Virus record (IMG/VR): IMGVR_UViG_2617270980_000004
Coordinates: 1 to 27,269 of that record
Direction: 5' to 3' (one strand)
DNA from: a virus
Taxonomy: Duplodnaviria > Heunggongvirae > Uroviricota > Caudoviricetes
DNA length: 27,269 nt
Below are positions 3,514 through 18,818 of the stretch, in pieces; the first letter of the stretch is position 1; every line of letters starts with the position of its first letter. The notes under the pieces were generated by a model that saw only the letters and a list, made by a program, of their open reading frames with translations, did no database searches and had not been told where the DNA came from. The translations under genes and the position numbers were made by a program.

Positions 3514-4530
3514 ATGGCTAACGCCTGGCTCAGATTATGGCATGACATGCCAAATGACCCTAAGTGGCGAACAATTGCCAGGGTGTCAGGGCAGCCAATT
3601 GCAACAGTGATGGCAGTGTATATCCACCTCCTGGTGAGCGCGTCACGAAATGTCACGCGAGGTCACATTGATGTCACGACAGAAGATTTGGCAAGTGCGC
3701 TCGACGTGACAGAAGAGGTAATTGATTCAATTTTGCAGACGATGCAGGGGCGGGTACTTGATGGTGATTTAATCACTGGATGGGAAAAACGCCAGGTGCT
3801 TAAAGAGGACAACGGCAATATTTCGCAAACCGCAAAATCTCCGGCAGAGCGCAAGAGGGCGCAGCGTGAGAGGGAAAGAAAGCGGGAACAAAATGGCGAT
3901 TGTCACGGCGCGTCACGAAATGTCACGCACATGTCACGACAAGTCACGACAGATAAAGATACAGATACAGAATTAAACCCCACACATAACGCGCGCATGC
4001 GCGAGAGTGCTCCAACCGGTGAGTCGCATGGTGCGCCGTTGCAGACAGCCGAACCTGAATACCTGGACGGCCTGAGCGAACCGATCGGGAAATTTTCGAT
4101 GACTACTGTCTGGCAGCTGTCGTCGGATTTTCGACAACGGGCAGCAGTGTGGGGTATGGCTCTGCCTGAGCCGGAATTTACACCTGCAGAGCTTGCCGCA
4201 TTCCGGGATTACTGGATGGCGGAGGGGAAGGTTTTCACGCAGGTTCAGTGGGAGCAGAAATTTGCCCGCCACGTGCAGCACGTCAGGGCACAGGTAAAAC
4301 CAGTCAGCAAGGGGGTAAGCCATGCAGCATCAGGTGGCACGGCATCACGGGCAGTTCAGGAAATCCGGGCAGCACGCGAACAGTGGGAACGTGACAACGG
4401 ATTTATCAGCAACGGAAACGGCCTGGAAGCTGTGGGAGCTTATGGGGGAGGTGTATTCGAACCGCTGGACACAGAAGAACGGGGCCGCACCTTCGAAGCT
4501 CTGGATTGCCCAGATTGGCGCGATGACTGA
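3514..4530 (+). CDS. replication initiator, O-like/YdaU-like, with internal origin iterons
   Basis: ATG at 3514 with AGAGGTG Shine-Dalgarno; N-terminal winged-helix-like region; two iteron clusters plus an AT-rich tract embedded in the coding sequence, as in lambda O. Confidence 0.7.
   Translation: MANAWLRLWHDMPNDPKWRTIARVSGQPIATVMAVYIHLLVSASRNVTRGHIDVTTEDLASALDVTEEVIDSILQTMQGRVLDGDLITGWEKRQVLKEDNGNISQTAKSPAERKRAQRERERKREQNGDCHGASRNVTHMSRQVTTDKDTDTELNPTHNARMRESAPTGESHGAPLQTAEPEYLDGLSEPIGKFSMTTVWQLSSDFRQRAAVWGMALPEPEFTPAELAAFRDYWMAEGKVFTQVQWEQKFARHVQHVRAQVKPVSKGVSHAASGGTASRAVQEIRAAREQWERDNGFISNGNGLEAVGAYGGGVFEPLDTEERGRTFEALDCPDWRDD
3638..3980. repeat. putative replication origin: two iteron clusters of GTCACG at roughly 10-bp spacing, followed by an AT-rich segment
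   Basis: GTCACG/GTCACA at 3642, 3652, 3662, 3673 and at 3902, 3912, 3922, 3932, 3942; a 19-bp direct repeat GCGTCACGAAATGTCACGC at 3640 and 3910; AT-rich GATAAAGATACAGATACAGAATTAAA from 3952. Confidence 0.5.
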
Positions 4531-4984
4531 ACAGCAAATCCGGCTGGTCTGCCGTCAGTGCATGGACCGCTGCCGGGCGGGTGAAACGTGGCCCCCGGAC
4601 CTGGCTGAGTTTGTTGCACTGATTTCGGAGAGTGGGGCAAATCCATTTGGTCTTACGGTGGATGCAGTGATGGAAGAGTACCGGCGCTGGCGCAATGAAT
4701 CCTGGCGATACGACGGGAGTGATAAATACCCGTGGCCACAGCCTGTGCTGTACCACATCTGCCTCGAAATGCGTACCAGAGGGATTGAGCGCCAGATGAC
4801 GCAGGGTGAGTTAAAACGACTTGCGGAACGGCAACTGACGAAATGGGCAAAGCATGTTGGTAACGGGATGAGTGTTCCGCCAGTGCGACGACAACTGGAA
4901 GGGGCGAAACACCCGCAAGGGCCAACGCCAATTGAACGGCTGAAACAGGAATACGAACGCCGGAAGGCAGCTGGTTTTATTTGA
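4322..4984 (+). CDS. lambda P-like replication protein (helicase loader)
   Basis: C-terminal half aligns by eye with lambda P as I recall it (WPPDLAEFVAL against PSPGQFVAWCRE; YDGSDKYPWPQ against YPDAESYPWKS). AAGGGGG Shine-Dalgarno before ATG 4322. Start uncertain (4322, 4334 or 4443) and overlaps the O-like gene. Confidence 0.65.
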   Translation: MQHQVARHHGQFRKSGQHANSGNVTTDLSATETAWKLWELMGEVYSNRWTQKNGAAPSKLWIAQIGAMTEQQIRLVCRQCMDRCRAGETWPPDLAEFVALISESGANPFGLTVDAVMEEYRRWRNESWRYDGSDKYPWPQPVLYHICLEMRTRGIERQMTQGELKRLAERQLTKWAKHVGNGMSVPPVRRQLEGAKHPQGPTPIERLKQEYERRKAAGFI

Positions 4985-6352: not shown

Positions 6353-7039
6353 ATGACCCCAATAAAAATATTTATGACTATTGCTGATTTCAAACGGCCT
6401 AAATTGGAACTCCCAAACGGGGCAAACAAACTACTACTGCACTCTTGCTGTGCTCCATGTTCCGGTGAAGTGATGGAGGCGCTTCAGGCCTCGGGAATCG
6501 ACTACACCATCTTTTTCTACAACCCGAACATTCATCCTCAGAAAGAGTATTTAATTCGTAAGGATGAAAATATTCGCTTTGCTGAACAACACGGCGTGCC
6601 GTTTATCGATGCTGATTACGACACCGACAACTGGTTTGAACGTGCCAAAGGAATGGAATGGGAGCCTGAGAGGGGGATCCGTTGTACCATGTGTTTTGAC
6701 ATGCGTTTTGAGCGGACAGCGTTGTACGCTGCTGAAAATGGTTTCAGTGTGATCAGCAGTTCACTGGGCATTTCACGCTGGAAAAATATGCAGCAGGTTA
6801 ACGAGTGTGGGCGGCGAGCTGTTGCGCATTATCCGGGTATGGTGTACTGGGATTATAACTGGCGCAAGCAGGGCGGCTCGTCCCGTATGATTGAAATCAG
6901 CAAGCGCGAAAAATTCTATCAGCAGGAATATTGTGGCTGTGTGTATTCTCTGCGCGATACCAATCTACACCGCAAATCTCAGGGACGCCCTCTTATCAAA
7001 ATTGGCCAACTCCACTACGGAAAAGAAGAGAAGGAGTGA
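6353..7039 (+). CDS. QueH-like (DUF208) Fe-S protein, epoxyqueuosine reductase family (assignment from recalled motifs)
   Basis: Conserved cysteine clusters [20 protein letters not shown] and QEYCGCVYS. No clear Shine-Dalgarno; alternative start at 6374. Extended -10-like TGcTACACT upstream. Confidence 0.55.
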
Positions 7040-7217
7040 TTTTATGGATCACCTTTCTGATTGATTTCATATTGGCGAGGTGACGTGAGTTAAGTAGAAT
7101 TGCTGCGGGTGCCTGAGGCTGTCTGCCTCAGGCATGAACACCAAAAGGCAGATAGAGAAAGCCCCAGTTAACATTACGCGTCCTGTAAGACGCTCAACAT
7201 TAATCTGAGGCATATGG

Positions 7218-8342
7218 ATGCGGATGAAAGAATTAAATAAATTCAGAGTGATAGACCTCTTTTGTGGGGCAGGTGGATTATCTTATGGTTTTCTTCATGG
7301 AGAGATGTCTGACTACTTTGAAAGTATCCTTGCTATTGATAATAATGCTGCAGCTATAAATACCTACAATGCCAATTTTGGTTTGCATGGAGTTCAGGCA
7401 AATATTGAGGAGTGGGCATCCAGCAATACTGTTCCTGAGGCTGATGTGGTCATAGGTGGCCCCCCGTGTCAGGGATTCAGTTTATTAAATAAGAATCGTT
7501 ATGGTGATCACCGAAGAGCATTGTGGGAGCCTTATATGGATGTCATTGAGCGTTCAAGGGCTTGTATGTTCGTCATGGAAAATGTCCCCGGATTGCTGAT
7601 AAGCGATGAGTTTGCGGACATTACGTTTAGAGCGAAATCCATGGGCTTTATTCTGCTTAATCCAATGGTGTTGAATACTGCTGACTATGGAGTACCTCAG
7701 ACAAGAAAACGAACGATAGCAATCGGTATCAAACGAGAACTCTTCGATGTGCATAGTATTCCGGCGTTCCCGCCAGCACCAACGCATCGTTCCCCTGATA
7801 AGGATGTCGCTTTGCCTGAATGGGTCTGTACGCGTGATGCAATTGGTGACTTACCTGCTCCTGTTGGAACTGATATTCGTAATGAACTTCCTCCGCTGAA
7901 CTTACATTTTGGGCGTAATCCCACACCTGTTTCTTTGGAGCGATATAAAGCGGTTCCACCAGGAGGTAACCGTTTCGATTTACAGAAAAAAAGACCTGAT
8001 ATAACCCCGGCGTGCTGGCTAAAAAAGAAATCTGGAGGGACCGATTTGTTTGGACGTCTGTGGTGGGACAGACCTTCAGTAACGATTCGTACTGAGTTTT
8101 TCAAACCGGAGAAAGGGCGATATTTACATCCGGAAGAGGATCGGCCAATAACTCATCGTGAGGCAGCGAGATTAATGTCTTTTCCTGATAATTTCATTTT
8201 TACCGGTTCAAAAACTGAGATTGCAAAGCAGATCGGGAATGCTGTTCCACCGCTATTTGCGGCAAAAATCGCACAATATGTGTATGGAGTTTTGCAGGGA
8301 CGGTATAAGAATAACATCAGTAAGAATAGTCAAGCAGCCTGA
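7218..8342 (+). CDS. DNA (cytosine-5)-methyltransferase
   Basis: Canonical m5C motifs: I FCGAGGLSYGF, IV GGPPCQGFS, VI ENV, VIII QTRKR, X GNAVPP. Confidence 0.9.
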   Translation: MRMKELNKFRVIDLFCGAGGLSYGFLHGEMSDYFESILAIDNNAAAINTYNANFGLHGVQANIEEWASSNTVPEADVVIGGPPCQGFSLLNKNRYGDHRRALWEPYMDVIERSRACMFVMENVPGLLISDEFADITFRAKSMGFILLNPMVLNTADYGVPQTRKRTIAIGIKRELFDVHSIPAFPPAPTHRSPDKDVALPEWVCTRDAIGDLPAPVGTDIRNELPPLNLHFGRNPTPVSLERYKAVPPGGNRFDLQKKRPDITPACWLKKKSGGTDLFGRLWWDRPSVTIRTEFFKPEKGRYLHPEEDRPITHREAARLMSFPDNFIFTGSKTEIAKQIGNAVPPLFAAKIAQYVYGVLQGRYKNNISKNSQAA

Positions 8343-8355
8343 AGGAAATCCAGAA

Positions 8356-9234
8356 ATGAATGGAGATTTGGTTGACAGCATAGTTGGTTTTGCTGAAGCC
8401 AGAAAGGAGTTTCATGCCCAATTGTTACTGAATACGCTCACAATTAATACTGCCGGAGTTGTTAGTAACGCAGATAGCAGTAACAAAAACAGTAAAGCTA
8501 TAGCAAGAGAAATTGCTCGCTTCTTGCAGGCTGAAACGATTGGTGAACGTGTTGCAGGGCAAACATCTGGTAATCAGTTTGAGAGTATCTGCGCAGAGTT
8601 TATAGAAAAAACCTTTTTTAAACTCAGCCACTTACGCCCTGGAAAATGGAATGTACATCAGGTTTCTGGTAGAAACAGATTAGAGATAGCTAAATATGAA
8701 CAATATGCCCATCTTATAGCATTGGATAGTGCTGCAAAAAGTAATCCTCAGCTAGCTGCTGCACTGGGGAGTGATTATACGATTTCACCAGATATTATTG
8801 TTGAAAGAGAACCTGAATGTGATCAAGTTATCAACAGTCCTGAATTACTGGTGGATGATTCTGTTACCCGCATGTCAGCTCTCAGGAGTTCGAATGGTGG
8901 GAAACCAATATTACACGCAAGTATTTCCTGCAAATGGACAATAAGAAGCGACCGGGCCCAGAATGCTCGTTCTGAGGCATTAAATCTTATTCGCAACCGT
9001 AAGGGAAATCTCCCTCATGTAATGGTTGTTACTGCTGAGCCTACTCCAAGTCGTCTGGCGTCTATTGCTCTTGGTACTGGTGATATAGATTGCGTGTATC
9101 ATTTTGCGCTTTATGAACTTATATCAGCAGTTGAAATACTGGGGCTCAGCGATGCAGCTGACATGCTTTCCGTGATGGTTAATGGTAAAAGATTAAAGGA
9201 TATTTCTGATCTTCCCTTGGATCTTGCAGTCTGA
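8356..9234 (+). CDS. type II restriction endonuclease, NgoMIV/Cfr10I-like (inferred from catalytic-motif spacing)
   Basis: Immediately downstream of the m5C methyltransferase; AAGGAAA Shine-Dalgarno. PD at residues 145-146, S-C-K at 191-193, E at 207; the D-to-K (47) and K-to-E (14) spacings match what I recall for NgoMIV (D140, K187, E201). Family assignment unverified. Confidence 0.55.
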   Translation: MNGDLVDSIVGFAEARKEFHAQLLLNTLTINTAGVVSNADSSNKNSKAIAREIARFLQAETIGERVAGQTSGNQFESICAEFIEKTFFKLSHLRPGKWNVHQVSGRNRLEIAKYEQYAHLIALDSAAKSNPQLAAALGSDYTISPDIIVEREPECDQVINSPELLVDDSVTRMSALRSSNGGKPILHASISCKWTIRSDRAQNARSEALNLIRNRKGNLPHVMVVTAEPTPSRLASIALGTGDIDCVYHFALYELISAVEILGLSDAADMLSVMVNGKRLKDISDLPLDLAV

Positions 9235-9684: not shown

Positions 9685-10731
9685 GTGCGGGTATTACTTC
9701 GACCTGTTCTGGTACCGGAACTCGGGCTGGTGATCGTTAAGCCGGGCCGTGAATCCATGCCGGTATTCCACAATACCCGGGTACTGGTGGAGCCGGAACC
9801 GAAAAGCATGCGTAATCTGCCGTCCGGGGTCGTTCCTGTCGTTCGCCAGCCGCTGGCGGAGGATAAATCATTACTGCCATTTTTCAGCGACGAACGAGTG
9901 ATTCGTGCTGCTGGTGGCGCTGGCGCATTGTCTGACTGGTTACTGCGCCATGTTAAATCCTGCCAGTGGCCACACGGCGATTATCACCACAGTGAAACCG
10001 TCATTCACCGTTATGGTACCGGCGCAATGGTGTTGTGCTGGCACTGCGACAACCAGCTGCGCGACCAGACCTCCGAATCACTCGGGCAACTTGCTCACCA
10101 AAACCTGTCTGCATGGATGATTGACGTCATACGCCATGCAATGAATGGCTCGCAGGAACGGGAATTATCGCTGGCTGAATTATCCTGGTGGGCGGTCCGC
10201 AATCAGGTGGCGGACGCGCTACCGGAAGCGGTATTACGTCGTTCGCTGGGGTTGCGTGCGGAAAAAATCCGCTCAATGTACCGTGAAAGCGACATCGTAC
10301 CGGGAGAGCAGACCGCCACCAGCATACTGAAGCAGCGCACAAAAAATCTTGCGCCGCTGCCTCCCGCCCACCAGCAAACCCCGCCACAGGAAGAGACGGT
10401 GGTCAGCATTGCCGTTGATCCTGAGTCTCCGGAATCTTTCATGAAACGACCTAAACGTCGCCGCTGGGTTAACGAGAAATACACACGCTGGGTGAAGACA
10501 CAGCCGTGTGCGTGTTGTGGTAAGCCAGCCGACGATCCCCATCACCTGATTGGTCATGGTCAGGGCGGAATGGGGACAAAATCTCACGATATTTTCACGC
10601 TACCGCTGTGTCGGGAGCATCACAACGAGCTTCATGCGGATCCTCTGGCGTTCGAAGAAAAGCATGGTTCTCAGGTTGATTTAATTTTTCGTTTTCTTGA
10701 TCACGCCTTTGCAACTGGCGTGCTTGGGTAA
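9685..10731 (+). CDS. DUF968/YdfU-like phage protein with a C-terminal Cys/His-rich HNH-like zinc-binding module
   Basis: GTG start 5 nt after GGAGG; C-terminus CACCGKPADDPHHL...HDIFTLPLCREHHNELH. Confidence 0.7.
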   Translation: MRVLLRPVLVPELGLVIVKPGRESMPVFHNTRVLVEPEPKSMRNLPSGVVPVVRQPLAEDKSLLPFFSDERVIRAAGGAGALSDWLLRHVKSCQWPHGDYHHSETVIHRYGTGAMVLCWHCDNQLRDQTSESLGQLAHQNLSAWMIDVIRHAMNGSQERELSLAELSWWAVRNQVADALPEAVLRRSLGLRAEKIRSMYRESDIVPGEQTATSILKQRTKNLAPLPPAHQQTPPQEETVVSIAVDPESPESFMKRPKRRRWVNEKYTRWVKTQPCACCGKPADDPHHLIGHGQGGMGTKSHDIFTLPLCREHHNELHADPLAFEEKHGSQVDLIFRFLDHAFATGVLG

Positions 10732-10743
10732 AAGAGGTGACTG

Positions 10744-11118
10744 ATGCTCATAGATTTGGTTTTACCTTACCCGCCGACGGTGAACACTTACTGGCGACGC
10801 CGTGGCAGCACATATTTTATCTCGGAGGAGGGAAAGCGTTATCGCCGGGCTGTGGCGCTTATTGTTCGCCAGCAGCGGCTGAAATTAAGCCTGTCCGGAA
10901 GGCTGGCGATAAAGGTGATTGCAGAGCCACCGGATAAGCGTCGTCGCGACCTGGACAATATCCTGAAAGCACCGCTGGATGCGCTGACGCATGCGGGAGT
11001 GTTAATGGACGATGAGCAGTTTGATGAAATCAATATCGTTCGTGGTCAGCCAGTATCTGGTGGACGTATGGGGGTGAAGATTTACCCCATAATGCATGAA
11101 GAGCAGGTCAAAAAATGA
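10744..11118 (+). CDS. rusA: RusA-family Holliday junction resolvase
   Basis: RusA signature: N-terminal YPPTVNTYWRRRG and PDKRRRDLDNILKAPLDALTHAGV; AAGAGGTG Shine-Dalgarno. Confidence 0.85.
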   Translation: MLIDLVLPYPPTVNTYWRRRGSTYFISEEGKRYRRAVALIVRQQRLKLSLSGRLAIKVIAEPPDKRRRDLDNILKAPLDALTHAGVLMDDEQFDEINIVRGQPVSGGRMGVKIYPIMHEEQVKK

Positions 11119-11936
11119 AACTGGAAGATTTACCGAAATACTACTCCCCAAAATCCCCTGGCCTGACCGATGCATCGGCCTCAACGTCAAAAGATGCGCT
11201 GAGTATCACTGATGTGATGGCCGCGCAGGGCATGACACAGAATCGGGCTGAGATGGGGTTTTCTGCGTTCCTGGGGAAAATGGGCATCAGTATGAATGAC
11301 AGGGCGCGGGCAACAGAATTACTGGCAGATTATGCACTCAGTCGGTGCGATCGTGTGGCGGCGTTGAGAAAACTTCCGGCAGAAATAAAACCGGTAGTGA
11401 TGCGCATTATGGCTTCGTATGCGTTTGAAGATTATGCCCGTAGCGCGGCGAGCAAAAAACAGTGCCCCTGCTGTCACGGAAAAAAATTTATTGAAAGCGA
11501 GGTTTTTACAAACAAGATCCAGTATCCGGATGGTAAGCCACCAGTGTGGGCAAAGTGCACAAAAGGCGTGTATCCGTCTTACTGGGAAGAATGGAAAAAA
11601 GTCAGGGAGGTGGTAAAAGTTGCCTGTCCGGAGTGTGGCGGAAAGGGTGAGGTTTCCACCGCCTGTAAGGATTGCCGTGGGCGTGGTGTCGCCATTCATC
11701 GTGAAGAGTCGGTAAAACGTGGTATGCCTGTTATCAGAGATTGCCAGCGTTGTGGTGGTCGTGGCTGTGAAAGGCTGCCATCAACGGAGGCATTTAATGC
11801 CATATGCAAAGTGACGAGTGCTATCACGCTTGATACGTGGAAAAAATCAGTGAAACGCTTTTACGATACGTTGGTGGTTCGGTTTGACATTGAAGAGGCA
11901 TGGGCGGAGCGGCAGTTAAAGAGGGTAACGCGATAG
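11115..11936 (+). CDS. late-gene antiterminator Q (Cys-rich zinc-finger type)
   Basis: Start overlaps the rusA stop (ATGA); multiple CxxC pairs (CPCCHGKK, CPECGGKG, CKDCRGRG, CQRCGGRG); immediately upstream of a promoter plus terminator pair. Confidence 0.8.
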   Translation: MKLEDLPKYYSPKSPGLTDASASTSKDALSITDVMAAQGMTQNRAEMGFSAFLGKMGISMNDRARATELLADYALSRCDRVAALRKLPAEIKPVVMRIMASYAFEDYARSAASKKQCPCCHGKKFIESEVFTNKIQYPDGKPPVWAKCTKGVYPSYWEEWKKVREVVKVACPECGGKGEVSTACKDCRGRGVAIHREESVKRGMPVIRDCQRCGGRGCERLPSTEAFNAICKVTSAITLDTWKKSVKRFYDTLVVRFDIEEAWAERQLKRVTR

Positions 11937-11941
11937 TGTTG

Positions 11942-11970
11942 TTGATTTTTCCCGAATCTGTGGTAAATTT
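11942..11970 (+). promoter_or_regulatory. candidate late promoter PR' (-35 TTGATT, -10 TAAATT)
   Basis: Hexamers seen with about 16-17 bp spacing directly downstream of Q; not verified. Confidence 0.35.
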
Positions 11971-12018
11971 GCCCTAACGATGGGCGTTTTATGCCTGACG
12001 TTAGAAGATTTTTTACAC

Positions 12019-12040
12019 CCCGCCGCCTGGCGGGTTTTTT
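12019..12040 (+). terminator. tR'-like rho-independent terminator downstream of Q
   Basis: Stem CCCGCC/GGCGGG with GCCT loop, followed by TTTTTT. Confidence 0.65.
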
Positions 12041-12162
12041 ATGACTGAAATCGCGTCAGTACAGTAAACGCGCTGGTGGCGGTGAATACCTGTCTTTCAG
12101 CTTGCTGGCTTTTTCGACAAGAGTTATTGGTGTGTCACGTTAACCGGAAAAGGGAAAAAGAC

Positions 12163-12360
12163 ATGCTAAAACAGCAGGATATGACAGAAACCGCCAGAGT
12201 GGTGTTTAATGAATTAAGCGTTACCGAACCGGCGACAGTCGGGGAGATAGCGCAGAATACTTACCTTTCACGCGAACGCTGCCAGTTAATACTGACCCAG
12301 CTGGTTATGGCGGGTCTGGCAGACTATCAGTTCGGTTGTTACAGACGCCTTCCGCAGTGA
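12163..12360 (+). CDS. hypothetical small winged-helix-like protein, 65 aa
   Basis: Internal ATG with AGGGA Shine-Dalgarno; followed by hairpin GCCTTC...GAAGGC and a T-run at about 12338-12372. Confidence 0.5.
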   Translation: MLKQQDMTETARVVFNELSVTEPATVGEIAQNTYLSRERCQLILTQLVMAGLADYQFGCYRRLPQ

Positions 12361-12510
12361 AGGCTTTTTTATTTGTGGTAAATGGGCGGCTGGTGGGTGT
12401 TAGGGGCACCCACCAGCCATCTGCTCATGCGTTGGGTTCACAAGCAAACCTCAGGCCCACTGCTTTGCGCAAAAGCAGAATGAGCCTATCAGAGACAGGC
12501 TTAATGATCC

Positions 12511-13560
12511 ATGCTTAATACTGTAAAAATATCCAGTTGTGAGTTAATCAACGCCGACTGCCTGGAATTTATCCGGTCGTTACCCGAAAATTCTGTTGAC
12601 CTGATAGTCACGGACCCGCCGTACTTTAAAGTGAAGCCTGAAGGCTGGGATAACCAGTGGAAGGGCGACGATGATTACCTGAAGTGGCTGGACCAGTGTC
12701 TGGCGCAGTTCTGGCGGGTGCTGAAACCTGCCGGAAGTCTTTACCTGTTCTGTGGTCATCGCCTGGCATCTGATATCGAAATCATGATGCGTGAACGCTT
12801 CAGTGTGCTGAACCATATTATCTGGGCGAAGCCGTCCGGACGCTGGAACGGATGCAACAAGGAAAGCCTGCGGGCGTATTTCCCCGCCACAGAGCGCATT
12901 CTGTTCGCGGAACATTATCAGGGGCCGTATCGTCCGAAAGATGCCGGGTATGCGGCGAAGGGCAGTGCACTGAAACAGCATGTGATGGCCCCGCTGATTT
13001 CTTACTTTCGTGATGCGCGCGCGGCCCTGGGGATAACGGCAAAACAGATTGCAGATGTCACAGGAAAGAAAAACATGGTGTCGCACTGGTTCAGTGCCAG
13101 TCAGTGGCAGCTACCGAACGAAAGCGATTATCTGAAATTACAGTCGCTGTTTGCCCGGGTGGCAGAAGAGAAACATCAGCGCGGTGAACTGGAAAAGCCC
13201 CACCACCAGCTGGTGGATACGTATACGTCACTGAACCGGCAGTATGTGGAGCTGCAGAGTGAATATAAGCATCTGCGGCGGTATTTTGGTGTGACGGCGC
13301 AGGTGCCGTACACGGATGTGTGGACACATAAACCGGTGCAGTTCTATCCCGGGAAACATCCGTGCGAAAAACCGGCAGAAATGCTGCAGCAGATAATCAG
13401 CGCAAGCAGTCGTCCGGGTGACCTGGTTGCAGATTTTTTCATGGGGTCGGGTTCAACGGTAAAAGCGGCGATGGCACTGGGGCGTCGTGCGATTGGCGTT
13501 GAACTGGAGACCGGACGTTTTGAGCAGACAGTCAGGGAAGTTCAGGATTTAATCGTTTGA
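12511..13560 (+). CDS. DNA amino-methyltransferase (N6-adenine or N4-cytosine), DPPY family
   Basis: Motif IV DPPY near the N-terminus (LIVTDPPYF) and AdoMet-binding FMGSGST near the C-terminus, the beta-class order. Confidence 0.85.
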   Translation: MLNTVKISSCELINADCLEFIRSLPENSVDLIVTDPPYFKVKPEGWDNQWKGDDDYLKWLDQCLAQFWRVLKPAGSLYLFCGHRLASDIEIMMRERFSVLNHIIWAKPSGRWNGCNKESLRAYFPATERILFAEHYQGPYRPKDAGYAAKGSALKQHVMAPLISYFRDARAALGITAKQIADVTGKKNMVSHWFSASQWQLPNESDYLKLQSLFARVAEEKHQRGELEKPHHQLVDTYTSLNRQYVELQSEYKHLRRYFGVTAQVPYTDVWTHKPVQFYPGKHPCEKPAEMLQQIISASSRPGDLVADFFMGSGSTVKAAMALGRRAIGVELETGRFEQTVREVQDLIV

Positions 13561-13609
13561 AACGGATGAGATTGCAGAATTAATTACGCACCATTATTAT
13601 TCTGCTTCC

Positions 13610-13685
13610 GGCCCTTTAGCTCAGTGGTGAGAGCGAGCGACTCATAATCGCCAGGTCGCTGGTTCAAATCCAGCAAGGGCCACCA
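13610..13685 (+). tRNA. tRNA with CAU anticodon (resembles E. coli minor Ile tRNA ileX/ileZ by recall; Met not excluded)
   Basis: Cloverleaf folds by hand: acceptor GGCCCTT/AAGGGCC, D arm GCTC...GAGC, anticodon loop CTCATAA, T arm GCTGG TTCAAAT CCAGC, 3' CCA encoded. Confidence 0.85.
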
Positions 13686-13785
13686 TCACAAACCGCCATT
13701 AGCTTATCAGGAAGAGCAGACGACACGATAACAGGGTTGTTGGTGCGGGGGCGGGTCCCCGATGGCGGTCCATTATCGGTATTCA

Positions 13786-13862
13786 GCGTTGTTAGCTCAG
13801 CCGGACAGAGCAATTGCCTTCTAAGCAATCGGTCACTGGTTCGAATCCAGTACAGCGCGCCA
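13786..13862 (+). tRNA. tRNA-Arg (anticodon UCU)
   Basis: Cloverleaf folds by hand: acceptor GCGTTGT/ACAGCGC, anticodon stem ATTGC/GCAAT with loop CTTCTAA, T arm ACTGG TTCGAAT CCAGT, 3' CCA encoded. Confidence 0.85.
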
Positions 13863-13996
13863 TATTCATTCTTCCAGATTCCTTTCGGCAGAGCCTTATA
13901 CTGAAATATACCTGGCTCAGGATATTGTTGAAAATATTATATGTTTGTCAAAAATAAAAGTTCTGTTAAGTGTTGATTGAGTGTTTGTTATACGGT

Positions 13997-14326
13997 CTAA
14001 TGGTTTTTTCAGCATTAAATATTTATCATTCATATGGTGTGGGTAGAGTGAATATTGATGAGGCGTCGGGGTGTTTCATCCTTAGGCAGCGTATTGATAT
14101 AGTCAATGCAGAACGAGCAAAGGCCTTCAGCCGTTTGACAGTTTTGTTCTGTACTCCTGATCGTCTTTCGGGAAGAGACGTTATTATTCTGAATAGTGAT
14201 GCTATACAGAGGGTTTGCGATGAGTTCATGGTGGCTAATTCAGAATTATTTGCTCTTGTTCAGGAGTACAACAGAATAGCCAGGACCTGTGGTATGGATG
14301 AACTTCGGATTACTCATCTGGGGTAG
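13997..14326 (+). CDS. hypothetical orphan protein in the AT-rich cargo island (start uncertain: 13970 TTG, 13997 ATG or 14048 GTG)
   Basis: Open frame without a convincing Shine-Dalgarno; contains a near-exact copy of the OR-type operator. Confidence 0.35.
   Translation, partial: LMVFSALNIYHSYGVGRVNIDEASGCFILRQRIDIVNAERAKAFSRLTVLFCTPDRLSGRDVIILNSDAIQRVCDEFMVANSELFALVQEYNRIARTCGMDELRITHLG
14192..14206. promoter_or_regulatory. distal copy of the immunity operator motif, AATAGTGATGCTATA
   Basis: Matches the OR site at 2686-2700 at 14 of 15 positions. Confidence 0.35.
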
Positions 14327-14717
14327 ATACATATCTGGATTATCACCGGTTACGGTAAAAAGTGATTGCTTACTGTTTTTGTGAATGGCATTGCAGCAGC
14401 CGGATAATGTCAGTGCTGGCTGACGGTGTGCTGGTGGCGGGGGTGGTGGTTGCTGCTTTCCCGTTGCTGAAAAAGAAAACGCCAGACTGTTAGCCGGGTA
14501 TCAGTTAGCGGGAGAAATTTTTAAATACTTCACAATTCAGGCGGTTGACTGTTGTCTGGTTTGCGGGGAGTTTGTTAAAAGAAACTGGCATGGTGAATCC
14601 CCCTGTGCGGAGGGGCAATCAGCGAGTAGGTATATGGGATAATCGCGGATTCAGGTGCTGGTACTGAATTCACCGGGAGGCACCCGGCACCATGCAATGG
14701 CACATAGCGCCACTCTC

Positions 14718-14754
14718 CAGCCCCTCTCCGGAGGGGCTGTTTATATTGATTTTG
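14718..14754 (+). terminator. strong rho-independent terminator in the cargo island
   Basis: Perfect 9-bp stem CAGCCCCTC/GAGGGGCTG with TCCG loop, followed by TTTATATTGATTTT. Confidence 0.6.
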
Positions 14755-14773
14755 TCAGATGTGAGTAAACTCC

Positions 14774-15109
14774 TTATGGACTTTGTTGTTTTAGCCCATA
14801 AGGACATATTTGCAGAGTGCAACGGTTATTAAAGCATTCATTCAATACGTTATCTGTATTTGTAGGGCATTCCTGGCTGTTTTTGATTAAATTCCAGAAT
14901 GTTTTATTGAATGGTACTACGTTGTAAATGGTTACAGGCAGCACTTTGTTATTGAGCATGATGCCTGTGTGAGTCAGTGTAAATATACTTTCAGGAGGTA
15001 AGAAAGCATCCGATTGATACCAGATTATTAATTTTATTTTACTCCATATGACTGAAAAAGATATTCCGCATGATGGCTGGATAACTGTATCAATCACAAT
15101 CCACTTCAT
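14774..15109 (-). CDS. hypothetical orphan protein, 111 aa, Trp/Cys-rich, AT-rich codon usage
   Basis: AAGGAAA Shine-Dalgarno 5-6 nt upstream of ATG at 15109; AT-rich promoter-like region upstream; opposite in orientation to late transcription. Confidence 0.55.
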
Positions 15110-15369
15110 TTAGTTTCCTTGTTTATGCCTTGCTGGTGATGTTCTGAAAAGTATAAATGATATTTTTGATTGTAAACCATAGAGCAGAATTATTTTTCTG
15201 ATGTTGTTTATTGTTTATTTAAATGCAGGGTGGTTTATATCTCGTCTTGTAGTTTATCCATGCATATCTGCTTGATGATGAGGTTTTTAATTAAGGTATG
15301 GTTTTGTGTTTTTTCTGTATTACATGTCAGGTATTTTAAAGAATCATTTTTCAGATGGTGGAAAGAACC

Positions 15370-17226
15370 ATGGCATTTAAACACTATGATGTTGTCAGGG
15401 CGGCGTCGCCGTCAGATCTTGCGGAAAAGCTGACACATAAACTGAAAGAGGGCTGGCAGCCGTTTGGTAGTCCGGTGGCCATAACCCCTTATACCCTGAT
15501 GCAGGCGATTGCAGCAGAAGGTGATGTGGTCGTCAGTGGTGCAACTGAGCCGGAGTGGTACTACGTCATCGTACTGGCCGGGCAATCCAATGCCATGGCT
15601 TACGGTGAAGGGCTTCCGCTTCCGGATTCTTACGATGCGCCCCACCCACGCATTAAGCAACTGGCCCGTCGCAACACAGTGACTCCCGGTGGTAAAGCAT
15701 GCGCATTTAACGACATCATTCCGGCAGACCACTGCCTGCATGATGTTCAGGATATGAGCGCACTGAATCATCCGAAGGCAGACCTGAGCAAAGGGCAGTA
15801 CGGCTGTGTCGGCCAGGGCTTACATATTGCCAAAAAACTGCTTCCGTATATCCCGAATAACGCGGGGATCCTGCTGGTACCATGCTGTCGTGGTGGTTCG
15901 GCATTCACCCAGGGCGCGGAGGGGACATTCAGTGCGGACACGGGGGCCAGCCAGGATTCGGCACGCTGGGGTGTGGGTAAACCGTTATATCAGGACCTGA
16001 TCGCACGCACCAAAGCGGCATTACAGAAGAACCCGAAAAATGTGTTGCTGGCGGTGTGCTGGATGCAGGGCGAATTTGACATGAGCGCTGCCACCTACGC
16101 ACAGCAACCGGACCTGTTCACGGCCATGCTGAAGCAGTTCCGTACTGACCTTTCCGGATTTAACGCGCAGTGCCATGGCGGCAGTGCTGCAGTTGTACCG
16201 TGGATTTGTGGCGACACGACGTATTACTGGAAAAACACATACGGCACACAGTATGACTCCGTCTACGGCGCGTACAAAAACAGGGAGAGCGACAACGTTT
16301 TCTTTGTGCCGTTCATGACCGACGGTAACGGCAACAACACGCCCACCAACTTACCGGCAGAAGACCCGGATATTGCTGATGCAGGTTATTACGGCGCGCA
16401 ATCCCGTAGTAATGGTAATTGGGTATCGTCAAATCGTCCGACACATTTCAGTTCATGGGCGCGCAGGGGCATTATTTCGGATCGCCTGGCAACCGCTATT
16501 CTGAACGCAGTTGGTCGAACCAGCGCCTTCATCAGCGGTACCGCACCGGAGATTAAACCCTCGCCCGGCGGCGACACGCCATCGGGGCCGTCTGATGGTG
16601 ACACATCCGTTCGTACAGTCTCCCTGCTGCCGACAGCCGGAGAGGCTGCTGCGCAGGGCTGGACCATCACCGGCGGCAGTGTTGCGCTGGAAGATGGTGT
16701 GTTTAAGGTTACCAAGCAGAGCAATAAAACCTGGTCCCTGATGCATCCGGTGGATGACGCGGTCTCCCTGCTGACACGGGGTGGCAGACTGAGCTGTAAG
16801 TTTCGACTGTCAGGCGCACTGACCAACAACCAGTTCGGTCTGGGAATTTATCTGTATACCGATGTAGCGTTACCTGACGTCGTGGCGATGACCGGGACTG
16901 GTAACCCGTTCCTGATGTCGTTCTTCACCCAGACCACAGACGGCAAACTGAATCTGATGCATCACAAGAAAGCCGGAAACACAAAGTTGGGCGAGTTCGG
17001 GAATTACAGTAACGACTGGCAGACGCTGGAGCTGGTGTTCACCGCCGGCAGTGCCACGGTTACTCCGAAACTGAATGGAGTGGCTGGCCCGGCATTCCAG
17101 GTCATAAAAGACAGTCTGACACTGGGGCTGAATGCGCTGACGCTGACGGATATTACCAAAAATGCAGCGTATGGCGTTGAGATAGAAAGTCTGGTGCTGG
17201 AGATAAATGCACCGGCATCATCATAA
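15370..17226 (+). CDS. NanS-p-like sialate O-acetylesterase (N-terminal DUF1737-like segment, SASA/SGNH esterase domain, C-terminal extension)
   Basis: GQSN esterase motif in VLAGQSNAMAYGEG; size and position (between the tRNA/cargo locus and the holin) match the nanS-p gene of Stx phages as I recall it. Confidence 0.8.
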   Translation: MAFKHYDVVRAASPSDLAEKLTHKLKEGWQPFGSPVAITPYTLMQAIAAEGDVVVSGATEPEWYYVIVLAGQSNAMAYGEGLPLPDSYDAPHPRIKQLARRNTVTPGGKACAFNDIIPADHCLHDVQDMSALNHPKADLSKGQYGCVGQGLHIAKKLLPYIPNNAGILLVPCCRGGSAFTQGAEGTFSADTGASQDSARWGVGKPLYQDLIARTKAALQKNPKNVLLAVCWMQGEFDMSAATYAQQPDLFTAMLKQFRTDLSGFNAQCHGGSAAVVPWICGDTTYYWKNTYGTQYDSVYGAYKNRESDNVFFVPFMTDGNGNNTPTNLPAEDPDIADAGYYGAQSRSNGNWVSSNRPTHFSSWARRGIISDRLATAILNAVGRTSAFISGTAPEIKPSPGGDTPSGPSDGDTSVRTVSLLPTAGEAAAQGWTITGGSVALEDGVFKVTKQSNKTWSLMHPVDDAVSLLTRGGRLSCKFRLSGALTNNQFGLGIYLYTDVALPDVVAMTGTGNPFLMSFFTQTTDGKLNLMHHKKAGNTKLGEFGNYSNDWQTLELVFTAGSATVTPKLNGVAGPAFQVIKDSLTLGLNALTLTDITKNAAYGVEIESLVLEINAPASS

Positions 17227-17311
17227 AAAGTGAGCCAGTCAAATGGAAGGTATCGTTAAACTCACCGGTAGTGTCAGTGGGTCGTCTGAGATGCCTGCAT
17301 GAGTTATCAGA

Positions 17312-18284: not shown

Positions 18285-18818
18285 ATGAACGCAAAAATCA
18301 GATACGGCCTGTCGGCTGCCGTTCTGGCGCTGATTGCCGCTGGTGCGCCTGCGCCTGACATTCTCGACCAGTTTCTGGATGAAAAGGAAGGTAACCACAC
18401 CACGGCATACCGTGATGGCGCGGGTATCTGGACCATCTGCCGCGGTGCCATCCTGGTGGATGGCAAACCTGTCGTTCCGGGCATGAAGTTGTCGAAGGAA
18501 AAATGCGACCGGGTTAACGCCATTGAGCGTGATAAGGCGCTGGCATGGGTGGAGAAAAACATCAAAGTGCCATTGAGCGAACCCCAGAAAGCGGGGATCG
18601 CGTCATTCTGTCCGTACAACATTGGTCCCGGTAAGTGTTTCCCGTCGACGTTTTATAAACGAATTAATGCAGGTGATCGCAGGGGAGCGTGTGAGGCGAT
18701 TCGCTGGTGGATTAAGGACGGTGGCAGAGACTGCCGTATTCGTTCAAACAACTGCTACGGTCAGGTATCCCGTCGTGACCAGGAGAGCGCGCTGGCGTGC
18801 TGGGGTATCGACAGATAA
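18285..18818 (+). CDS. R: SAR endolysin (lysozyme R with N-terminal signal-anchor-release domain)
   Basis: N-terminal SAR-like hydrophobic segment YGLSAAVLALIAAGAPAP followed by a lysozyme core (EGNHTTAYRDGAGIWTICRG); close to phage 21/Stx-phage R by recall. Confidence 0.9.
   Translation: MNAKIRYGLSAAVLALIAAGAPAPDILDQFLDEKEGNHTTAYRDGAGIWTICRGAILVDGKPVVPGMKLSKEKCDRVNAIERDKALAWVEKNIKVPLSEPQKAGIASFCPYNIGPGKCFPSTFYKRINAGDRRGACEAIRWWIKDGGRDCRIRSNNCYGQVSRRDQESALACWGIDR

Follow-up and report, generated by a model that had tools for sequence, protein, structure and literature searches.

A probable mosaic of known accessory modules, including iraL, at and beside the Shiga toxin position of an stx-negative lambdoid prophage of Escherichia coli

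Introduction

The IMG/VR virus record IMGVR_UViG_2617270980_000004 is a lambdoid prophage of Escherichia coli. All of its 27,269 nucleotides (nt) were analysed and are called the window here. An AT-rich island lies at 13866-15354 of the window, between phage tRNA genes and a nanS-p gene. In the original prediction, made from the sequence without database searches, this island was described as cargo held in the place where Shiga toxin (Stx) phages carry stxA and stxB. We find that the segment belongs to the pR' late (moron) region of a prophage that lacks stx, and that it is very probably a mosaic built from known accessory modules. Its minus-strand gene is identified below as iraL, the gene of an RssB anti-adaptor. 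Next to it lies the small RNA (sRNA) element STnc100, and a small gene named ORF92 (ORF, open reading frame) is found together with a DUF3927 gene at the stxAB position itself. The features of the island and its flanks are listed here, with protein lengths in amino acids (aa).

13610-13685, plus strand: tRNA gene with anticodon CAU (ARAGORN; Rfam tRNA, 72.5 bits), left flank of the island
13692-13772, plus strand: degenerate tRNA-Arg(UCG) gene (argN), recognised by aligning it with O104:H4 and CFT073, whose three-tRNA arrays are intact
13786-13862, plus strand: tRNA-Arg(UCU) gene (argO) (ARAGORN, Rfam)
13866-15354: the island
14048-14326, plus strand: ORF92, most likely 92 aa with a GTG start, phrog_2873, occupying the stxAB position
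14362-14493, plus strand: DUF3927, a 43-aa small hydrophobic protein, PF13064 and phrog_1470, "TciB-like" in PHROGs
14559-14748, plus strand: STnc100 sRNA gene (Rfam, RF02076), terminator hairpin included
14774-15109, minus strand: iraL, 111 aa, RssB anti-adaptor of the IraM/IraL/RssC family, convergent with STnc100
15110-15369, minus strand: iraL 5' untranslated region, promoter and AT-rich regulatory region, 31-35% GC
15370-17226, plus strand: nanS-p type SASA sialate O-acetylesterase gene with DUF1737 and DUF6645 (Pfam), right flank of the island

Two adjacent slots in the late region

The GC content of the island is 39.9%, as compared with 51.3% for the window, and that of the iraL module is 33%. 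The low values are found in two troughs (38% at 13850-14150 and 31-35% at 14750-15350) with a 55% GC stretch between them. A tblastn search of the window with the A and B subunits of Stx1 and Stx2 detected no stxA or stxB, the best match (E 0.62) being due to chance. The description of an AT-rich, stx-free segment between the phage tRNAs and nanS-p is therefore upheld.

Homology between the window and the Stx phage 933W falls into three blocks, which are 13459-13870 (the tRNAs), 14530-14696 (STnc100) and 15369 onward. The first block stops at 13870, about 8 bases past tRNA-Arg(UCU). As judged from these boundaries, the position equivalent to stxAB is only 13871 to about 14530, the part that holds ORF92 and DUF3927. 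iraL has a neighbouring slot on the minus strand between STnc100 and nanS-p, which is not the stx slot itself. Placement of the island in the stx slot thus applies to its left part, which sits exactly at the stxAB position of 933W and of the Shigella phage 75/02, but not to iraL, which sits in the adjacent slot of AsxR and AgvB. The right edge, drawn at 15354, belongs about 15 bases further on, where Stx-phage homology resumes (about 15369-15370). The RefSeq start of nanS-p is 15370 and homology to the 933W esterase begins at 15369. The order of elements in the three genomes is as follows.

933W: after the tRNAs, stx2AB; STnc100; AsxR on the minus strand; esterase
Phage 75/02 (Shigella): stx1AB; STnc100; AgvB on the minus strand; esterase
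This window: after the tRNAs, ORF92 and DUF3927; STnc100; iraL on the minus strand; esterase

No tRNA array is annotated upstream of stx1A in phage 75/02. The convergent arrangement between the moron coding sequence and a conserved downstream ORF has already been described (Tree et al. 2014; PMC4104026). A search for remnants of AsxR or AgvB in the island gave none, even at E values up to 1.

Identification of the minus-strand gene as iraL

Starvation for Mg2+ induces the RssB anti-adaptor IraM (YcgW/ElbA) in E. coli K-12. The NCBIfam IraM subfamily model NF007393 matches residues 1-110 of the minus-strand product at 162 bits (cut-off 121), and the 111-aa ORF predicted at 14774-15109 with an AAGGAAA Shine-Dalgarno sequence is real. 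Its product is identical in 111 of 111 residues to WP_000871291.1, encoded in the potB prophage of strain CFT073, which is the IraL of the published work (PMC4045071). Identity to K-12 IraM is 62% over 107 residues. Because the product is 100% identical to CFT073 IraL and only 62% identical to K-12 IraM, the gene is assigned on protein identity as iraL, a characterised RssB anti-adaptor. Residues 1-78 align with PDB entry 8TWD (chain 8twd_A, IraM; E 9e-32), the N-terminal domain of IraM crystallised with RssB. This implies that the N-terminal ~78 residues of IraL would share the PmrD-like fold of IraM. In all E. coli records examined, the RefSeq label of iraL is "anti-adapter protein IraM".

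The CFT073 gene is c1429, formerly ycgW, and was characterised by Hryckowian et al. 2014 (PMC4045071). Both the level and the stability of RpoS, the sigma factor of the stress response, depend on IraL in logarithmic phase in CFT073. IraL binds the N-terminal receiver domain of the adaptor RssB only, whereas IraM binds both domains, and the two also differ in regulation (PMC4045071). In the CFT073 lysogen iraL is transcribed in logarithmic phase from its own promoter, which the authors suggest to be a sigma-70 promoter (PMC4045071). Expression of the minus-strand gene in the lysogen from a promoter of its own, as had been proposed for the window, is thus established for the identical gene. In addition, iraL is upregulated in a fur mutant (PMC7157518) and after an upshift to 37 C (PMC12890032).

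The published iraL sequence obtained by rapid amplification of cDNA 5' ends (5'RACE), ACATCACCAGCAAGGCATAAACAAGGAAAC, matches the minus strand at 15142-15113 in 30 of 30 positions, and the transcription start is the A at 15142. The Shine-Dalgarno sequence is at 15120-15114. TATACT at 15155-15150 is the likely -10 element, and TTTACA at 15176-15171 is a possible -35 element. Identity to CFT073 is 96.5% over the 260 bp that precede the start codon and 98.5% over the portion that runs from just before this codon to about -100. A promoter scan predicted 6 promoters against 6.2 expected from shuffled sequences and hence gave no excess. Since the scan count is no higher than that of the shuffles, the promoter assignment rests on the published RACE data and not on the scan.

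STnc100 is conserved backbone

The stretch described as an ORF-free structured segment of the cargo is STnc100. The Rfam match is full length (model positions 1-206) at 132.4 bits with a gathering score of 47, and the z-score of its minimum free energy is -2.26. The strong terminator noted there is confirmed: a terminator scan gives an intrinsic hairpin at 14718-14739 followed by a T-rich tail, and this is the 3' hairpin of STnc100. The element is found at the same place in 933W and in phage 75/02 (just after stxB in both), in CFT073 and in six other phages. JLK-2012 and phi296 are among the phages with this position, and every other lambdoid late region that was fetched contains the element, sometimes in two copies. 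Because the same element lies downstream of stxB in Stx phages, STnc100 and its terminator are conserved backbone and not cargo.

STnc100 overlaps EcOnc27/sRNA103, an Hfq-bound sRNA downstream of stx2B in O157:H7 (PMC4104026, PMC12711010). The RNA was detected by reverse transcription PCR in vesicles of Shiga toxin-producing E. coli (PMC12370729). In related genomes RefSeq carries a partial pseudogene ("hypothetical protein") on the minus strand at 14578-14703, wholly within STnc100, which is probably spurious.

Two tandem copies of STnc100 occur in some phages, as in loci L003 (3561-3754 and 4030-4218), L025 (2064-2257 and 2533-2742) and L012 (5352-5547 and 5612-5718). Breakpoints between the modules of different phages fall inside STnc100 or at its edges (window positions 14530 and 14696). 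The tandem copies and these breakpoints suggest that STnc100 serves as a homology patch for the exchange of morons. iraL and STnc100 may share the 14718-14739 hairpin.

ORF92 and DUF3927 at the stxAB position

The plus-strand ORF was proposed at 13997-14326 and does correspond to a gene, with a different start. The upstream ATG is at 14000 and not 13997, and the conserved start is the GTG at 14048. A 118-aa frame at 13970-14326 matches phrog_2873 with 235 bits; searched against Pfam and NCBIfam, this 118-aa ORF gave no family above the cut-off. RefSeq has no feature over ORF92 in two E. coli records, nor among the matches listed for the module, and this absence looks like a gene-calling gap. 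Other E. coli prophages carry a variant with 68% nucleotide identity, which usually follows an AraC-like regulator. Between the GTG at 14048 and the stop codon the alignment of the two variants is free of gaps, and third codon positions have changed twice as often as the other positions. Against this variant, the ratio of nonsynonymous to synonymous substitution rates (dN/dS) is 0.27 for the ORF92 frame and 0.84-1.2 for the remaining two. By this substitution pattern, ORF92 is under purifying selection and is a real gene. Upstream of 14046, indels in the alignment of the variants break the frame and the ATG at 14000 is not conserved; starts at 13970 or 14000 were rejected on these grounds. The gene is most likely 14048-14326 (92 aa), because the gap-free alignment begins at 14048 and the frame upstream of it is broken.

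In loci L011-L013 and L007, which are E. coli prophage contigs, the second variant follows immediately after the gene of a 241-aa AraC-family (HTH_18) regulator, again in this late-region slot. An IS3-family insertion sequence (IS) lies just upstream of ORF92 in L007-L010.

An exhaustive HMMER search with ORF92 gave 21 representatives. The relatives are 91-95 aa long, have 33-64% identity and share the conserved core "ERA-AFS-LTV-[FY]-TPDR"; the long repeat proteins P0025, P0033 and P0035 were discarded as repeat artefacts. In the AlphaFold (AF2) model of ORF92, which has a predicted local distance difference test score (pLDDT) of 88, two helices form a hairpin and the loop that joins them contains the TPDR motif. 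A Foldseek search of this model against the PDB returned only generic helical-hairpin or prefoldin-like matches, none of them at E <= 0.001. A scan of species-representative genomes found ORF92 at three loci, in E. coli, in Citrobacter braakii and in a contig labelled as a Bacillota metagenome-assembled genome, and the module on the latter contig is enterobacterial-phage-like. ORF92 is absent by tblastn from the Stx phages 933W and 75/02. It is also absent from JLK-2012, where the 168 bases between the last tRNA and tciA leave no room for it.

The second gene of this slot, DUF3927, was missing from the predicted gene list, which was therefore not complete. It matches Pfam PF13064 with 92.7 bits (cut-off 25) and is annotated by RefSeq too. 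In phage JLK-2012 the same slot contains tciA-tciB, the DUF3927 counterpart being annotated tciB. The Citrobacter braakii locus and loci L014-L016 and L020 have the order ORF95, a 141-aa TerB-like gene, DUF3927 and holin. Homologues of ORF92 (33-64% identity) precede DUF3927 in L014, L020 and L021. A literature search for TciB returned nothing relevant and no experimental paper; the Tci names are annotation labels.

On this evidence one may ask whether ORF92 and DUF3927 are the core of the slot, a remnant or minimal form of an ORF9x-TciA-TciB late-operon module upstream of the holin. Such a module would have a role in the phage life cycle beyond the lysogenic conversion by iraL, with a proposed action at the envelope, in lysis timing, in exclusion or in colicin resistance. 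We regard this as possible but somewhat doubtful. The gene order in Citrobacter braakii, L014-L016 and L020, the tciA-tciB pair of JLK-2012, the PHROGs label of DUF3927 and the low dN/dS of ORF92 speak for it. The window, however, contains ORF92 and the 43-aa DUF3927 but no TerB-like TciA, and the N-terminal hydrophobic segment that the 50-aa form of DUF3927 has is missing from its copy. The Tci labels, as said, come from annotation. Moreover, the absence of ORF92 from JLK-2012, 933W and 75/02 means that the module is dispensable.

Distribution of the modules

Prevalence was determined in 5426 complete E. coli genomes, with a module counted at a coverage of at least 80%. By this measure, 1183 of these genomes have the left module (the ORF92 side) and 1428 have the iraL module, and the complete island is present in 863. 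From the whole island to the iraL module, this corresponds to 16-26% of complete E. coli genomes. For the left and iraL modules alike, conservation of at least 95% is seen in well over a thousand genomes. Commensal and extraintestinal E. coli commonly carry the ORF92 module. Phage mEp460 has the left half without the right, and vB_EcoS-640R1 and its relatives have the right half without the left. The island is 99.9% identical to the genome of the O104:H4 strain 2011C-3493.

The island is thus a composite in which at least three modules have distributions of their own. It had been presented as one unit of uncharacterised cargo, a view that does not hold, as the minus-strand gene is the characterised IraL. 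The case for novelty falls as well, since one of the two ORFs is well characterised and a substantial share of complete E. coli genomes carry the island. Published descriptions already exist for iraL, for STnc100 and for the moron architecture downstream of pR'. A literature search on iraL as a lambdoid gene returned no papers.

A model for the island and its alternatives

The preferred reading of the segment as a mosaic of known modules divides it into two slots. In slot 1 (tRNAs to STnc100), ORF92 and DUF3927 have the orientation of late transcription, and with antitermination by Q they would be transcribed together from pR'. STnc100 with its terminator comes next, on the same strand, and would also be part of the Q-antiterminated transcript. 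In slot 2 (STnc100 to nanS-p), iraL would be expressed in the lysogen from its own promoter, as shown for the identical CFT073 gene. IraL would bind the receiver domain of RssB and is taken to keep RssB from delivering RpoS to the protease ClpXP. Through this action on RssB and RpoS, the prophage would rewire the stress response of its host during lysogeny. On induction, Q-modified RNA polymerase would pass the STnc100 terminator and run antisense across iraL to nanS-p and the lysis genes.

Several points weigh against parts of this reading. The start of ORF92 was placed by conservation alone, and its Shine-Dalgarno sequence GGTG is weak. The candidate -35 element of iraL leaves a short spacer of 15 nt. 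On the minus strand, which is the iraL side, the hairpin at 14718-14739 has no U-tract. The evidence for iraL expression comes from CFT073, so that for this strain and prophage it applies by analogy. Read-through and antisense interference on induction are inferred, and the roles and expression of ORF92 and DUF3927 are predicted.

It is very unlikely that the slot carries a novel virulence or toxin cargo in place of Shiga toxin. The stx position, the AT-rich and foreign-looking composition and an ORF92 with no known function and no Pfam or NCBIfam family would fit such a cargo. Yet the best-supported gene of the segment is 100% identical to IraL and the structured RNA is STnc100. The modelled ORF92 appears to be a cytoplasmic helical hairpin with neither a signal peptide nor a toxin-like fold, and its module is common in commensal and extraintestinal strains.

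Least credible is the view of the island as decaying, non-functional DNA, made of pseudogenes and remnants in a defective prophage: a degenerate middle tRNA, a RefSeq pseudogene fragment within STnc100 with no feature at ORF92, and the truncated nanS-p of CFT073 are outweighed by an intact iraL that is identical to a gene with a demonstrated phenotype in CFT073 and has a conserved promoter, by the purifying selection estimated for ORF92, by an STnc100 far above threshold and by the conservation of the modules across well over a thousand genomes each.

Prophage context

The prophage of the O104:H4 strain 2011C-3493 is 95.5% identical to the window over 11005-17300. The other features of the window, in the order given by Pfam, NCBIfam and PHROGs, are as follows.

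4322-4984: lambda-P-like replication gene
6353-7039: QueH
7218-9234: type II restriction-modification pair
9685-10731: DUF968
10744-11118: RusA
11115-11936: antiterminator Q (Pfam Antiterm)
11970-12034: terminator-like hairpins directly after Q (terminator scan)
12076-12360: small ORF (phrog_331)
12511-13560: N6/N4 DNA methyltransferase, 349 aa
17299-17592: P21-type holin
18285-18818: lysozyme
From 19377: Rz, terminase and head genes

The predicted order of Q, tR', tRNAs, island, nanS-p, holin and lysozyme is essentially right. It omits the small ORF at 12076-12360, the methyltransferase at 12511-13560 and the degenerate tRNA-Arg(UCG). The claim that the island lies in a moron region downstream of pR' in a lambdoid prophage agrees with its position, which matches that of the Stx phages.

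The counterpart of the CAU tRNA is labelled tRNA-Ile in O104:H4, CFT073 and 933W (ileZ in 933W and RefSeq relatives). The argN copy of the window has kept its acceptor stem and CCA end, while its anticodon and variable region are scrambled, and neither ARAGORN nor Rfam picked it up. argN is intact in the ileZ-argN-argO arrays of O104:H4, CFT073 and 933W.

In the restriction-modification pair of the early-right region, the methylase (7218-8342) is of the C5 cytosine type and the endonuclease (8221-9234) belongs to the NgoMIV family. A borderline sok match at 7107-7287 (61 bits, gathering score 59) adjoins the pair, and hokD is found at the corresponding place in the O104:H4 relative. QueH, an epoxyqueuosine reductase also encoded in the early-right region, is annotated in the O104:H4 relative too. 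The methyltransferase gene lies between Q/tR' and the tRNA array, and hence inside the late transcription unit and upstream of the moron slot. The same stretch of CFT073 has an IS200 transposase gene and no methyltransferase.

Significance

The RefSeq label "IraM" hides the paralogue IraL, which differs in regulation and in RssB binding. About a quarter of complete E. coli genomes carry a phage-borne RpoS stabiliser, which bears on strain differences in stress tolerance. As iraL occupies the position of AsxR and AgvB, different prophages would use one convergent slot to retune global regulators of the host, namely RpoS, GcvB and FnrS. The interest that remains is in the function of ORF92 and DUF3927, in iraL as an occupant of the AsxR/AgvB slot, and in ORF92 as a small conserved gene unannotated in the RefSeq records examined.

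A wider proposal, which we hold only tentatively, joins these points. ORF92 with DUF3927/TciB, in fuller versions with the TerB-like TciA, would be a functional and conserved late-operon module of enterobacterial lambdoid phages, and a dedicated convergent slot, located between STnc100 and nanS-p, would receive modifiers of host regulons that are expressed in the lysogen. If this is true, the module has a function in lysis timing, in exclusion or at the envelope. The anti-sRNAs AsxR and AgvB and the protein anti-adaptor IraL would be interchangeable occupants of the slot, which is possibly coupled to STnc100 via the shared hairpin.

Comparison with known systems

The modules of JLK-2012 and of the Citrobacter type have DUF3927 at the same late-operon position as in the window. 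The window differs from them in having no TerB-like TciA and in its shorter DUF3927.

K-12 IraM is a paralogue of the window gene, of the same family, and the window gene is not IraM itself. The context is also different, as K-12 iraM lies beside the e14 remnant. No Rfam match to STnc100 was found in the K-12 locus that was fetched.

The iraL locus of CFT073 has the same neighbours as the window, namely tRNA-Ile/Arg/Arg, DUF3927, STnc100, iraL and the DUF1737/nanS-p gene. In the window nanS-p is intact (623 aa), the middle tRNA is degenerate and a methyltransferase gene stands between Q and the tRNAs, whereas CFT073 has IS200 at the methyltransferase position and a truncated DUF1737/nanS-p gene. 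The CFT073 paper calls the location of iraL a genomic island and does not remark on the correspondence to the stx/AsxR region.

A close architectural counterpart is the moron region of the Stx phages 933W and Sp5, with the order pR', tRNAs, stxAB, EcOnc27/STnc100, AsxR or AgvB, and nanS-p. The window has the same backbone in the same order, and its tRNA array, STnc100 and nanS-p/holin/lysozyme genes are homologous to those of the Stx phages. Where these phages carry stxAB, the window carries ORF92 and DUF3927. In both, a minus-strand modifier of host regulons converges on STnc100; it is an anti-sRNA of 51-60 nt in the Stx phages and the protein-coding iraL, with its 260-bp AT-rich promoter region, in the window.

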